Source: Myxococcota bacterium (lineage in GTDB: Bacteria; Myxococcota; UBA4151). Taken from it: 64,000 nucleotides of DNA. A model generated the notes under the pieces. That model ran no database searches and had not been told where the DNA came from. It saw only the letters and a list, made by a program, of their open reading frames with translations. Positions 39,704 through 42,418 of this stretch are shown piece by piece (position 1 is the stretch's first letter; each line of letters opens with the position of its first letter). Location: NCBI GenBank assembly GCA_040260805.1, contig JBDQPD010000004.1, positions 6,219-70,218 on the forward strand, in the 5' to 3' direction. Both the position numbers and the translations under genes were made by a program.

Positions 39704-42418
39704 ATGCGCCTCGCTACGATTTTTACGCTCGCTTTATGTTCAACCACTTGGCTGGGTTGTGACACCACCAGCAATGTGGGCGACACCCCTCCCGCCTGTG
39801 TTCCGTCCGATGAAGTCTGTGACGGCATCGACAACAATTGCGATGGCGACATTGATGAAGGGTTTGATGTCGGCGAAGCCTGCAGCAGCGGTTTGGGCGC
39901 TTGCGAGAGCGCTGGCGTCTTAGCGTGCGGCGACGACGGCGCAGCCGTTTGTGACGCTGCGGTGATCGAGCCGAGCGAAGAGCTCTGCGACGGCATCGAC
40001 AACAACTGCGATGGCACCATCGATGATGGCTTCAATGTAGGCGATGCGTGCAGCGGCGGCGTGGGTACCTGCGCAAGCGAAGGCGTGATCAGCTGCTCAG
40101 AAGACGGAACCGCTTCGTTGTGTGACGCCGTCGCCGGCGAGCCGAGTGCTGAGCTCTGTGACGGCTTGGACAACGACTGCGACGGCGACAGCGACGAAGA
40201 CTTCAACCTTGGCGATGCCTGTGAGTCTGGCGTCGGCGCCTGCCTTTCAGCAGGCGTTAACGCTTGCGGCGAAGACGGCGCAGTGATCTGCGATGCGCCA
40301 GTGATCGAGCCCACCGAAGAGCTCTGCGATGGCATCGACAACAACTGCGATGGGGACGCCGACGAAACCTTCAACGTCGGTGAAGCATGCGAAGCCGGCA
40401 TCGGCGCTTGCCTCGCCCAGGGCGCGCTCGCCTGCACGGACGATGGCGGTATCGCCTGCAACGCCGTGCCGGGTGCTCCGTCTGAAGAGCTCTGCGATGG
40501 CATCGACAACAACTGTGACGGCGACACCGACGAGAGCTACAACGTGGGCAGCGCGTGCCGAAACGGCGTCGGCGCTTGCGTTGCGGAGGGACAGTTTGCT
40601 TGCCAAAACGATGGAACGGCTGCTTGCAACGCAGTGCCCGGTGACCCAAGCGAAGAGCTCTGCGATGGTATCGACAACAACTGCGACGGCGACACCGATG
40701 AACCCTTTAACGTCGGCGGCGAATGCAGCAACGGCGTGGGCGCTTGCGAAGCGGCCGGCGCGATCGCCTGCCTGCGTGACGGCACGGCGGCGTGCAACGC
40801 AGTGCCCGGCGATCCGACCGAAGAGCGCTGTGATGGGGTCGACAACAACTGCGACGGTGACACTGATGAACCCTTCAACGTGGGCCGCGAATGCAGCAAC
40901 GGCGTAGGTGCCTGCGAAGCAGCCGGCGAAATCGCCTGCCTGCGTGACGGCACGGCGGCGTGCAACGCCGTCGCGGGTGACCCGAGCGATGAGATTTGTG
41001 ACGCCGCAGACAACGACTGCGACGGCGACACCGATGAGGGCTTCCGAGTCGGTGCAGCCTGCTCGAGCAGCTTAGGTGAGTGCTCAAACGAAGGCGAAAT
41101 CGCTTGCCTTGATGACGGCACGGCGAGCTGCAACGCAGCAGAACCCGTGGTGGCAGAAGAGATCTGCGACGACGTGGACAACGACTGCGATGGCTGGATT
41201 GATGAACGCTGTGACCGACCCGGTATGCTAAGCGGCATTCAAACCGGTGGGGTCGTCAGTGAGTTGCAAAGCGAGGGCTGGGAGGTCTGTCACCGCAGCG
41301 CCATGAACACCCGAAACCATTCGCTGCAAGAGGTGTTGAGCGACTGTGAAGGTGCTCAGTTGATGATGGCTTGCGGAGAGGTCAACGCGGACCAGCTCAC
41401 CCTCAACGCCTCAGGAACCTTTGCCGGCGTCACGACAGTCGTTGAAAACAACTCAACAGGTTCGCATCAACACAACGGCGCCACTTGGTATTACAATGAG
41501 AGCCGCTCGTGGGGCTTTGCGCCCGCAGACGAAGCCGTCAGCAGAAACACCTGTGACACGAACAATCTGAACGCTGACGGGGAAACCCGAATGTGCATTC
41601 ACACTGAAAACGGAAACATCGGCGCAGGGTTCCGATGCGGAAACAATCGATTGAACGCCTCGGCGGACTGGGAACGACTGATTCTTCGACGCACCGGTCA
41701 GTTCTCGTTCCGCGACGAACTTGCGACGCGCGTCGTACGCGGCGAGGGCAATCACGACGGCGTCTTGCAAGCCTACGTCGACGGCGCGTGGGGTTATGTT
41801 TGCGATGATGTCTTTGACCGAAACAATAACGCAGCGATCGTCTCGTGCCGGCAAATGGGTTACGATGGCGGAAGCCATTCAAACGCCAACACGGGAACCA
41901 ACGAGTTTGCGCTTGATGATGTGAGCTGCGCTTCAGACCAGTTTGAACGCTTGACCCAGTGCACCTCAACCACGCGAGAAAACTGCAGCGCGAGTGAAGG
42001 CGTTCGTCTGACCTGCGACGGCGGCTCACGCTTGGTGCGTCGCAACGGCGACAATGAGCGCACTGGTATCCTTGAGGTGTATGCCCAAGGCACATGGGGT
42101 CCGGTCTGCGATGATGGATTCGACGGCAACCTCAACGGGGCCGAGGTCGCCTGTAAAGAGATGGGCTACCCGGGTGCGCTGCGCCAGCTGGACGTTCGAT
42201 CAGCAAACAACAACTTTAAGCTGGATAACGTCCAATGCGTTGGAAATGAACACGATCTACTCGACTGCCCTCGCTACGGAAACTCTCAGATTAACCAACA
42301 CAACTGCAGCACGACCGAAGCGGTCGGTCTGGAATGTTTGGCGTGGGGTGCGTGCCGCAACGACAGCCACTGCGATGGTGTTGAAACCTGCGTGAATGGT
42401 TCGTGTGAGCTGCCCTAA
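39704..42418 (+). CDS. Secreted lipoprotein with nine MopE-type 'putative metal-binding' repeats and two SRCR-like domains
   Basis: Signal FTLALCSTTWLGC; nine copies of ~45-aa module CDGIDNNCDG-D-DE-FNVG-AC-G-GAC---G---C; C-terminal VRGEG...WGYVCDD...SCRQMGY and VRRNG...WGPVCDDGFD...ACKEMGY (SRCR consensus). Confidence 0.8.
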   Translation: MRLATIFTLALCSTTWLGCDTTSNVGDTPPACVPSDEVCDGIDNNCDGDIDEGFDVGEACSSGLGACESAGVLACGDDGAAVCDAAVIEPSEELCDGIDNNCDGTIDDGFNVGDACSGGVGTCASEGVISCSEDGTASLCDAVAGEPSAELCDGLDNDCDGDSDEDFNLGDACESGVGACLSAGVNACGEDGAVICDAPVIEPTEELCDGIDNNCDGDADETFNVGEACEAGIGACLAQGALACTDDGGIACNAVPGAPSEELCDGIDNNCDGDTDESYNVGSACRNGVGACVAEGQFACQNDGTAACNAVPGDPSEELCDGIDNNCDGDTDEPFNVGGECSNGVGACEAAGAIACLRDGTAACNAVPGDPTEERCDGVDNNCDGDTDEPFNVGRECSNGVGACEAAGEIACLRDGTAACNAVAGDPSDEICDAADNDCDGDTDEGFRVGAACSSSLGECSNEGEIACLDDGTASCNAAEPVVAEEICDDVDNDCDGWIDERCDRPGMLSGIQTGGVVSELQSEGWEVCHRSAMNTRNHSLQEVLSDCEGAQLMMACGEVNADQLTLNASGTFAGVTTVVENNSTGSHQHNGATWYYNESRSWGFAPADEAVSRNTCDTNNLNADGETRMCIHTENGNIGAGFRCGNNRLNASADWERLILRRTGQFSFRDELATRVVRGEGNHDGVLQAYVDGAWGYVCDDVFDRNNNAAIVSCRQMGYDGGSHSNANTGTNEFALDDVSCASDQFERLTQCTSTTRENCSASEGVRLTCDGGSRLVRRNGDNERTGILEVYAQGTWGPVCDDGFDGNLNGAEVACKEMGYPGALRQLDVRSANNNFKLDNVQCVGNEHDLLDCPRYGNSQINQHNCSTTEAVGLECLAWGACRNDSHCDGVETCVNGSCELP
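39800..41210 (+). repeat. Intragenic tandem array (~135-bp period, ~9 units) encoding MopE-type Cys/Asp repeats
   Basis: Recurrent GATGGCATCGACAACAACTGCGA(T/C)GGC... units; divergent copies within a continuous ORF (not CRISPR). Confidence 0.7.

Follow-up and report, generated by a model that had tools for sequence, protein, structure and literature searches.

SRCR (scavenger receptor cysteine-rich) domains are commonly regarded as a module of the animal lineage that serves in innate immunity and matrix biology. Their acquisition has been called "a specific feature of animals" (PMC4448552), and no literature on bacterial SRCR proteins was found in the searchable library. A preliminary description of the window, a 64,000-nucleotide stretch of DNA from a Myxococcota bacterium, placed two such domains behind an array of MopE-type repeats in a single lipoprotein. 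This raises the questions of whether these are true SRCR domains, how they came to be encoded by a bacterium, and what the protein that carries them may do.

An exported cysteine-rich mosaic

The lipoprotein gene (39704-42418, + strand) is one uninterrupted ORF of 904 aa plus a stop codon, close to the length of about 905 aa given at first. A Shine-Dalgarno-like GGAG read from the sequence (39695..39698, +) precedes the ATG at 39704 by 5 nt; therefore, this start is favoured over the upstream TTG at 39671. A terminator-like hairpin followed by a T-run (42455..42472, +) was found 37 nt past the stop codon in a consensus scan and is a pattern match only. Three other long ORFs overlie the gene: two on the minus strand (39577-40527, 316 aa; 40537-41238, 233 aa) and one in an alternative frame of the plus strand over the repeat array (40329-40907, 192 aa). 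All are S/P/A-rich and without a Pfam match. Real antisense genes were rejected on these grounds; as had been supposed, these ORFs are spurious products of the repeat array.

The first 19 residues (39704..39760, +; MRLATIFTLALCSTTWLG-C19) form a putative lipoprotein signal peptide with a lipobox-like T-W-L-G-C19. It has a positive N-region with Arg2, a hydrophobic core, Gly at -1 and Asp after the Cys. By inspection, the lipobox agrees with the relaxed PROSITE-type pattern, whereas W at -3 and L at -2 set it apart from the canonical L-[AS]-[GA]-C. The 904-aa protein contains 76 Cys, which implies an oxidising compartment. It is an exported, very cysteine-rich mosaic, so the early view of a secreted Cys-rich protein was correct.

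The signal peptide is followed by eight tandem 56-aa six-Cys modules (aa 35-483; 39806..41152, +), delimited by Pfam, TRF and module alignment, and by a truncated ninth (aa 484-504; 41153..41215, +), which holds the MopE motif (CDDVDNDCDG at aa 488, the ninth Pfam stretch) and one more Cys. Pfam PF11617 (Cu-binding_MopE) matched nine stretches, its score of 125.2 bits (E 1e-36) being far above the cut-off of 27, and the CDGxDNxCDG motifs start at aa 39, 95, 152, 208, 264, 320, 376, 432 and 488. The nine motifs had been counted correctly, but the period is 168 nt (TRF), or 56 aa, rather than ~45 aa, and only eight modules are complete. Each consists of a CDGxDNNCDGxxDE (MopE) loop and a GxxCxxGxGxCxxxGxxxCxxDGxxxC mini-sheet, with Cys in even, conserved sets typical of disulfides. 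Identity between modules ranged from 48 to 89% at the amino acid level and from 58 to 87% at the nucleotide level. An environmental allele (P0280), 98% identical to the window protein, lacks exactly one 56-aa module.

The AF2 model of two modules had a beads-on-string shape, with a pLDDT of 93.5 and a pTM of only 0.64. A profile of 35 two-module sequences matched no PDB chain at E<=10, the crystal structure of MopE included, and a Foldseek search of the two-module model against the PDB gave nothing below E 2.4. The repeats had been called metal-binding; the Pfam family name is all that speaks for this, and the module profile matches no solved structure. The proposed TIGR04052-like match was not found either, as no NCBIfam/TIGRFAM model matched any part of the protein. 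For the MopE motif, the one relevant paper found describes related acidic Cys motifs from algal gametolysins and from the Cys-rich region of teneurins (PMC3278476).

The repeats had been thought to lead straight into the SRCR domains. A 160-aa, six-Cys, beta-rich domain (aa 505-665; 41216..41698, +), delimited by homologues and an AF2 model, was missed between them. It has no relative in Pfam, NCBIfam or the PDB. Its model is confident (pLDDT 93.2, pTM 0.89); its fold matched nothing in the PDB or BFVD, and the profile search against PDB sequences was also negative. A word-index homologue search with aa 504-904 returned four proteins with this domain (P0001-P0004) and one frog DMBT1. The family comprises at least 1951 cluster representatives (50% identity clusters) at E<=1e-3. 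The window protein, identical to P0179 from a 71,140-bp NCBI contig, matched the family profile with 238.7 bits (E 2e-66, profile positions 1-158) and has the conserved Cys and the SWGFAP, NRxSCD, RMCxHT, GYRCG and WER motifs. The middle domain is thus a widespread, uncharacterised bacterial family. Its partners are exclusively extracellular adhesive modules (MopE in 19 of 68, DUF4215, fn3, SRCR, Stig1, TSP_3 and Big_2), and no enzyme domain was found beside it in its proteins. It is the least-known part of the protein, and ligand binding or catalysis could in fact reside there.

The SRCR domains and their bacterial relatives

Both SRCR domains were recovered. A significant SRCR HMM match had been set beforehand as a check, and Pfam PF00530 matched two stretches that cover positions 2-99 of its 100-position profile, with a score of 110.4 bits (cut-off 26.1, E 6e-32). 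In phmmer searches against the PDB, CD163 was matched at E 1e-67, and single-domain matches ranged from 1e-15 to 1e-8; the structures matched besides CD163 were neurotrypsin, MARCO, DMBT1, SCARA5 and Mac-2BP. SRCR1 (aa 672-772; 41717..42019, +) was delimited by PF00530 and by alignment with CD163 and SCARA5, and has Cys at 700, 715, 742, 753, 761 and 771. SRCR2 (aa 774-879; 42023..42340, +; best Pfam stretch 781-878) has Cys at 802, 817, 845, 855, 868 and 878, and its PDB matches were neurotrypsin, MARCO and DMBT1. The short C-terminal Cys-knot tail with four Cys (aa 880-904, CRNDSHCDGVETCVNGSC) and the stop codon occupy 42341..42418 (+) in the translation. The tail gave weak, sub-threshold Pfam matches to the EB module and DUF7107, and its CRxNxxC motif also trails the SRCRs of the metagenomic protein P0139.

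The six Cys columns are invariant (alignments A1 and A3). The cysteine spacing, which had been named as a point to check against groups A and B, follows the six-Cys group-A pattern in both domains, and both belong to that type, with C2, C3, C5, C6, C7 and C8 and without the group-B pair C1/C4. The two extra Cys of the frog DMBT1 domains (group B) have no counterpart in the window, which has GY for GC. PMC10855680, citing Resnick et al. 1996, gives the SRCR disulfides as C2-C7, C3-C8 and C5-C6. Both domains are predicted to share this pairing and the SRCR fold.

To place the cation sites, the window was mapped to DMBT1 through an SRCR consensus that we take to represent the DMBT1 domains. This consensus reproduces the residue numbering of PMC7043408, in which the cation sites of DMBT1 SRCR8 are D1019/D1020/E1086 and D1020/D1058/D1059/N1081. 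The aligned residues are D701/D702/E765 and D738/D739/N760 in SRCR1, and D803/D804/E872 and D841/N842/N867 in SRCR2, where N842, in place of the second D of the LDDV motif, is the one D-to-N change. On this alignment, both domains keep the residues that bind surface-exposed cations in SRCR8 of DMBT1/SALSA. Identity between the window SRCRs and those of animals is 35-41%, and all six Cys as well as the residues of the cation sites fall into aligned columns. Because this homology is clear, convergent use, which had been offered as one explanation, is excluded.

SRCR domains had also been called unusual in bacteria, and a pattern scan bears this out. Among 185,579 species genomes (GTDB representatives, with the window's own genome outside this set), 67 bacterial SRCR loci were found in ~50 genomes, mostly Myxococcota. 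All of these genomes are MAGs, and some are closed chromosomes. Six Cys were present in 118 of 127 bacterial SRCR domains, and the partner domains include LTD, VWA, Stig1 and DUF4215. Bacterial SRCRs are therefore rare but recurrent. Nor is the fusion a one-off: the 56-aa module, the middle domain and SRCRs occur together in P0139 and in ORFs of the loci L005, L009, L011, L012, L015 and L030.

The best 28-42 BLAST matches of the window SRCRs were all bacterial, and the closest relative of SRCR2 is the bacterial L001 (47% identity). The window SRCRs diverge more than most bacterial ones, with GILEVY/GVLQAY for GRVEV and 2-residue insertions after CDDxFD. In neighbour-joining bootstraps, their local clade was all-bacterial in 84-87 of 100 replicates, in a tree of ~100 columns with a biased eukaryotic outgroup sample, drawn from an SRCR-profile search and mostly short fragments. 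GC and GC3 of the SRCR region (0.571/0.644) fall inside the range of the neighbouring genes. Recent horizontal transfer from an animal was rejected, since the nearest SRCRs are bacterial and GC/GC3 resemble the neighbours. The position of the window SRCRs among bacterial ones and their host-like GC argue for homology and old residence over convergence, contamination or recent capture. An ancient transfer, as first proposed, is compatible with these data, which fit either direction.

The gene lies between bacterial operons, with nqr, BipA, MATE, SctU and RmuC among the flanking genes. The BipA of the window is closest to Gammaproteobacteria (66-68% identity), and the host may thus lie outside Myxococcota. 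Cys-rich repeat proteins, a PEGA kinase and a weak TraA-like match give a Myxococcota-like look. Just downstream are SctU, a non-flagellar type III secretion (T3SS) gene whose NCBIfam score exceeds the cut-off, and a TPR gene of chaperone-like type; the lipoprotein gene and the T3SS genes are transcribed convergently. No metal-homeostasis gene adjoins the lipoprotein gene. The same contig sizes (8565, 6722 and 5184 bp) in the two protein clusters suggest that the adjacency of MATE and the lipoprotein gene recurs in other metagenomes.

Proposed role and rival explanations

We believe, at somewhat better than even odds, that the protein is a disulfide-rich stalk, anchored by lipid, at whose end Ca2+-dependent domains are displayed for the binding of anionic ligands, and that its SRCRs come from an old bacterial pool. 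The N-terminal lipid would tether the protein to a membrane, and the module array would form a stiff stalk of variable length, probably Ca2+-loaded; the acidic, DxDxDG-like sequence of the MopE loop is the ground for presuming that it binds Ca2+. At the far end, the middle domain and the two SRCRs would bind polyanionic ligands via bound Ca2+, like animal SRCRs. The ligands could be cell-surface glycans, LPS or teichoic-acid-like polymers, matrix or mineral. Such a protein would be an adhesin or a recognition receptor of the bacterial envelope. Its SRCR module, homologous to the animal one, would stem from a pool circulating among Myxococcota-like and some other bacteria, and would have been resident long enough to match the composition of the host.

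Two explanations seem to us unlikely to the same degree. One is that the protein is a eukaryote-mimicking factor of host interaction, in which a copied host SRCR binds ligands of an animal such as a sponge or disturbs scavenger-receptor recognition, much like the "eukaryotic-like proteins" known from symbionts. Several SRCR-bearing MAGs have sponge-like isolate names (SB0662_bin_58, COS4_bin_44 and IRC1_bin_7), which, from the names alone, we presume to mean a sponge origin. One further MAG is titled a Cycloclasticus symbiont of a poecilosclerid sponge, the T3SS and TPR genes lie close by, and the identity of bacterial SRCRs to animal ones (35-41%) would suit a copy. However, most carriers bear Myxococcota, Bradymonadia or Bdellovibrionales labels or were sampled from groundwater or lakes, and are not obvious animal symbionts. 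The window SRCRs are nearest to bacterial copies, not to animal ones, and their composition is fully host-like. With its apparent Sec/lipoprotein signal, the protein would not be a T3SS substrate, and its gene converges on the T3SS genes.

The other is that the protein is periplasmic and anchored in the inner membrane, where it would serve the envelope structurally or as a sensor instead of being a surface adhesin. Under the Lol-avoidance rule of E. coli, Asp at +2 means retention in the inner membrane. By this rule, the Asp that follows C19 would make the protein periplasmic and not surface-exposed, and the gammaproteobacterial affinity of BipA lends the rule some relevance. However, sorting rules vary by lineage, and BipA is only 66-68% identical to that of any named gammaproteobacterium. 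A stalk of ~450 aa with three globular domains would probably be large for the periplasm, and homologous domains occur in autotransporter-linked, clearly extracellular mosaics (fn3, Big_2, PPC and Autotransporter).

Copper or metal handling as in Methylococcus MopE, with nine motifs that bind metal for uptake or detoxification and accessory C-terminal domains, is considerably less probable. It is suggested by the name of PF11617, "Cu-binding_MopE / putative metal-binding motif", and Asp, Asn and Cys abound in the motif. Helland et al. 2008 are reported to have found two His and a kynurenine at the copper site of MopE; neither His nor Trp is conserved in the module. Its Cys form the disulfide-type sets described above, its acidic loop would resemble a Ca2+ site more than a Cu site, and the structure searches and the neighbouring genes likewise speak against this reading.

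An artefact, either a mis-binned or mis-assembled eukaryotic fragment or a chance Cys-rich match, is hardly credible, even though every bacterial SRCR locus found is from a MAG and none from a cultured isolate. Eukaryotic contamination is refuted by the single uninterrupted ORF that joins bacteria-specific modules to SRCRs, by the bacterial flanks with uniform GC and GC3, and by closed chromosomes among the other carriers. The full-length protein, identical or 95-99.6% identical, also recurs on independent contigs from NCBI, JGI and ENA. The Pfam and CD163 E-values rule out a chance match.

Returning to the lipid-anchored stalk, a bolder extension of it can be framed, which we hold to be rather improbable. 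Bacterial SRCR proteins would be the prokaryotic counterpart of scavenger receptors, that is, Ca2+-dependent pattern-recognition adhesins with which Myxococcota-like, partly predatory bacteria recognise other cells; the SRCR fold would not be an animal invention but equally old in bacteria or even donated by them to eukaryotes, and the middle domain would be a second, previously undescribed ligand-binding fold in the same set of recognition tools. Group-A SRCRs with intact cation sites, in ~50 bacterial genomes and inside a recurring bacterial architecture, form a protein set with which one can ask whether cation-dependent ligand binding is older than animals and in which direction the domain was transferred. 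If the protein proves to be simply another adhesin, the practical benefit is that Cys-rich mosaic proteins in MAGs can be annotated better. A by-product is the middle domain, a widespread domain with a confidently predicted fold of its own.

Comparison with known systems

MopE of Methylococcus capsulatus and other PF11617 proteins share with the window protein the 30-residue motif C-x-D-G-x-D-N-D-C-D-G-x-x-D-E, matched nine times. In the window, this motif makes up just the opening third of a 56-aa six-Cys module, and the module profile has no detectable homology to the copper-binding part of MopE or to any other PDB sequence. Thrombospondin type-3 and calcium-binding EGF-type stalks are likewise built of small, tandem, disulfide-locked modules with acidic DxDxDG-like loops and serve as extended spacers for terminal binding domains. 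The likeness would be a functional analogy drawn from sequence features: the Pfam TSP_3 and EGF models do not match the window protein, and the two-module model has no significant fold match, although TSP_3 and EGF_CA domains accompany the middle domain in other bacterial proteins.

Other bacterial SRCR mosaics are also close, namely P0139 from an ENA metagenome, L005 (Bradymonadia), L009 and L015 (Myxococcota KLAP118), L011 and L012 (Myxococcales) and L001. They are assembled from the same parts in a shared order, with the 56-aa MopE modules in tandem first and the middle domain, SRCRs or both behind them; the CRxNxxC tail is often present as well. P0139 and the window protein are collinear, and their identity is 49% across the modules and 35% across the 427 aa that span the middle domain, SRCR1 and SRCR2. 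Copy numbers differ, with two middle domains in P0139, six SRCRs in L025 and seven in L048. Beyond the 90% cluster of the window protein, no relative exceeds ~50% identity, and those that bear names are annotated at NCBI only as hypothetical or VWA proteins.

Animal group-A SRCR proteins (MARCO, SR-AI, SCARA5, Mac-2 binding protein, LOXL2 and neurotrypsin), CD163 and DMBT1/SALSA share the homologous domain of ~100 aa, with the WGxVCDD, LD(D/N)VxC and NCxxxE motifs. In contrast to these, the window copy is encoded by a bacterium, is joined to the bacterial 56-aa Cys modules and to the unnamed middle domain, and would be anchored by an N-terminal lipobox-like signal instead of a eukaryotic transmembrane or collagenous region.

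Architecture of the putative lipoprotein and its module array

The putative lipoprotein is encoded on the forward strand at 39704-42418. The open reading frame spans 39671-42418 (+), and its internal ATG at 39704 is preceded by GGAG at 39695-39698 (+); a terminator-like hairpin lies downstream at 42455-42472. The product is 904 aa long from this ATG, in agreement with the preliminary description. Pfam placed Cu-binding_MopE (PF11617) in nine stretches (125 bits against a cut-off of 27, E = 1e-36) and SRCR (PF00530) in two (110 bits against 26.1, E = 6e-32), with SRCR_2 overlapping the latter, so the MopE motifs and the two SRCRs had been recognized correctly. 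The proposed TIGR04052-like MopE match was not obtained: the NCBIfam search of the protein gave nothing, hence no TIGRFAM-type MopE match. The last 25 residues form a four-cysteine tail with only sub-threshold similarity to the EB module in Pfam.

The nine CDGxDNxCDG motifs start at residues 39, 95, 152, 208, 264, 320, 376, 432 and 488. Their spacing of 56-57 aa and the period of 168 nt given by Tandem Repeats Finder show that the repeat is a six-cysteine module of 56 aa and not of about 45 aa, as was initially thought. In each module, the MopE loop precedes a segment of the form GxxCxxGxGxCxxxGxxxCxxDGxxxC, and the array comprises eight complete modules and a truncated ninth. Identity between modules ranges over 48-89% for protein and 58-87% for DNA, and is highest for the pair 6 and 7. 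Long ORFs that overlie the array in antisense or in another reading frame do exist; they had no Pfam match, contain 24-25% Ser and 14% Pro, and are read as shadows of the repeat.

In the AlphaFold2 model of two modules (35-sequence alignment; pLDDT 93.5, pTM 0.64), the MopE motif is predicted to form an irregular loop, followed by a three-stranded sheet. High pLDDT with this pTM is what would be expected of independently folded beads. No PDB structure resembled the model by fold, and the module profile had no match in PDB sequences even at E = 10; therefore, nothing found here backs the "copper-binding" label. With its acidic, DxDxDG-like sequence, the loop may bind Ca2+ instead. P0280, an environmental allele of 848 aa from an ENA metagenome that is 98% identical to the window protein, lacks exactly one 56-aa module (residues 383-438 of the window protein, about nt 40850-41017). 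Either the array length is naturally polymorphic or the array was collapsed in the assembly of P0280; the loss of one module fits a variable-length spacer.

The middle domain

The array is not joined directly to the SRCRs. Between them lies an overlooked domain of 160 aa with six cysteines (41216-41698 (+), residues 505-665). No relative was found in Pfam (even at E = 10), NCBIfam or PDB. In the first homologue search, no other region in the C-terminal half retrieved relatives from bacteria (P0001-P0004, including an Arenimonas malthae protein). A profile built from six copies was searched against 1.84 billion cluster representatives. It matched 1951 proteins at E ≤ 1e-3, of which 633 reached E ≤ 1e-30; two to four copies in tandem are present in many of them. 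In the best 150 of the 1951, the domain was at the extreme C-terminus in 94, a frequent position in these secreted mosaics; DNDCD-type motifs were present in 33, and SRCRs also occurred in 6. When 68 members were scanned with Pfam, the partners were MopE (19), DUF4215 (6), fn3 (5), SRCR (4), Stig1, TSP_3, Big_2, EGF types and one autotransporter. All of these are extracellular modules, and there was no enzyme domain among them.

The AlphaFold2 model of the domain (40-sequence alignment) was of high confidence and mostly beta, with pLDDT 93.2 and pTM 0.89. Foldseek found no likeness among solved (PDB) or viral (BFVD) structures (best E 0.18 and 0.07, TM < 0.3), and the profile matched no PDB sequence. 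A new fold may be considered from this model but is unproven. P0001 carries two copies of the domain together with MopE motifs (locus L069, 811-6686, JGI contig Ga0118726_1000933). Its gene lies directly 3' of that for a 1397-aa LTD and CotH protein, with a 4-nt overlap, which hints at an operon link between the middle-domain family and CotH-type proteins.

Genomic context and origin of the SRCR domains

The gene of the window protein has ordinary bacterial neighbours. Upstream are nqrA-F, BipA, SPFH/NfeD, fructosamine kinase and MATE, and downstream are SctU, MBL, three AIM24 genes, M48 and RmuC. Part of a non-flagellar type III secretion system lies directly downstream in convergent orientation (42750-45857 (-)). 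It includes SctU, which scored 369 bits (NCBIfam cut-off 358), and an ORF of 142 aa. A TPR protein there resembles SctY/LcrH-SycD below threshold, and a Gly-rich protein of 366 aa without a family match could be a substrate. Three tandem AIM24-family paralogues (227, 229 and 232 aa; 46731-48817 (-)) adjoin a metallo-beta-lactamase-fold protein. At 49816-52278 (+) is an 820-aa protein with 15 Cys-rich acidic "myxo_disulf_rpt" (DUF4215) repeats and a C-terminal PPC domain; like the window protein, it is a large secreted mosaic rich in Cys, and the two lie within 8 kb of each other.

The taxonomic signals, read from BipA (27321-29186 (-)) against the genes at 7470-9368, 24124-27324 and 49816-52278, conflict. 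BipA had metagenomic relatives at 99, 84, 74, 71 and 70% identity, and its best named relatives (66-68%) were all Gammaproteobacteria (Acidiferrobacterales, Sulfurifustis, Woeseiaceae and Plasticicumulans). The 15-repeat protein, a PEGA-domain Ser/Thr kinase and a weak TraA-like match are Myxococcota-like. The label "Myxococcota-type" suits the repeat but not demonstrably the host.

One genome per species from 185,579 bacterial and archaeal species was scanned with two conserved SRCR peptide patterns. At least 67 loci in about 50 genomes were confirmed, a lower bound because exact patterns were required. The genome from which the window comes was absent from this set, in which the best SRCR match was 47% identical. 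According to the record titles, about 26 carriers were Myxococcota (Archangium, Myxococcaceae, Kofleriaceae, Sandaracinaceae, Polyangiales and Bradymonadia), 4 "Deltaproteobacteria", 1 Bdellovibrionales, 9 Gammaproteobacteria and 2 Binatia; Spirochaetia, Alphaproteobacteria, Acidobacteria and Solirubrobacterales had one each, and 4 were unclassified. Several of the gammaproteobacterial carriers may be sponge-derived, judging by their isolate names. All 67 loci came from MAGs, several on closed chromosomes or contigs of at least 100 kb, and none from a cultured isolate. Their 89 ORFs hold 127 full SRCR domains (six cysteines, the group-A pattern, in 118), with MopE modules, DUF4215, LTD, Stig1-like, VWA and the ALK/LTK glycine-rich domain as partners. 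Stand-alone 114-aa ORFs with a single SRCR (L036, 1602-1944 and 5964-6306; L037, 21-363 and 4383-4725) recur 4362 bp apart on a 19.5-kb Gammaproteobacteria MAG contig, CBDBIZ010000004.1, which suggests a larger repeated unit carrying an SRCR minigene.

P0139, an ENA metagenome protein of 1239 aa, shows the order of the window protein collinearly: identity is 49% across the modules and 35% across a 427-aa stretch with the middle domain, both SRCRs and the CRxNxxC tail. The full module also occurs in tandem in 46 other proteins among the homologues and loci collected. The fusion is therefore a family trait and not a singular event. The earlier claim that it is unusual should be softened: bacterial SRCRs are rare (about 50 of 185,579 genomes), but they recur, and the window protein belongs to a family.

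Contamination, chance matching and convergence were weighed as explanations for SRCRs in this protein. The SRCR segment has a GC of 0.571 and a GC3 of 0.644, within the range of eight other window genes. An identical copy of the protein (P0179) is on a 71-kb NCBI contig, and copies of 95-99.6% identity are on JGI and ENA contigs, where contigs of equal length suggest that the MATE neighbour is present as well. The closest SRCRs were bacterial: locus L001 (47%), a Bradymonadia MAG (L005, 42-48%) and Archangium MAGs (L002 and L018, 40-42%), and the first sequence from a mostly eukaryotic sample appeared at ranks 29 and 43 for the two domains. A neighbour-joining tree of 64 domains placed both inside an all-bacterial clade, and their local clade contained bacterial sequences only in 84 and 87 of the 100 bootstrap replicates; the tree used about 100 columns and a limited set of animal sequences, and gives no direction of transfer. 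Together, these findings exclude contamination, chance and the "convergent use" considered initially. Homologous SRCRs, long resident in bacteria, are the supported reading.

Proposed function and comparison with known SRCR proteins

Against PDB, the C-terminal 402 aa matched CD163 at E = 1e-67, and the single SRCRs matched neurotrypsin, MARCO, DMBT1, SCARA5, Mac-2BP, LOXL2 and SR-A (E = 1e-15 to 1e-7). SRCR1 and SRCR2, 38% identical, have exactly six cysteines each, in columns that were invariant in the alignments with frog DMBT1 and with 27 bacterial SRCRs. The two extra cysteines of group B are absent, and "MGY" stands where group B has "GC". The cysteine spacing, which had been named as a check, is thus that of group A, and by this pattern both domains are assigned to group A.

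We lean slightly towards a lipid-anchored stalk displaying Ca2+-dependent binding domains for anionic ligands. This proposal draws on what was shown for the protein: its architecture and export signal, the assignment of its SRCRs to group A, their conserved cation-site residues, and domain partners that are all extracellular and non-enzymatic. The protein would be lipid-anchored at Cys19; the array would form a disulfide-locked stalk of about 450 residues, probably stiffened by Ca2+; and the middle domain and two SRCRs would be displayed distally, binding anionic ligands via Ca2+. By the rule known from E. coli, the Asp at +2 would keep the protein at the inner membrane, which bears on the compartment.

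In the DMBT1 SRCR8 structure, the ligand-binding cations are held at D1019/D1020/E1086 and D1020/D1058/D1059/N1081, and D1019A or D1020A abolishes binding (PMC7043408). The aligned residues are D701, D702, E765, D738, D739 and N760 in SRCR1 and D803, D804, E872, D841, N842 and N867 in SRCR2; in the alignment, all are kept except for one D-to-N change. At NCBI, the few relatives with a name are annotated as "hypothetical protein" or as "VWA domain-containing protein", and a literature search found no papers on bacterial SRCRs. In the window protein, the known SRCR superfamily takes a new and so far unstudied bacterial form, combined with an uncharacterised domain.
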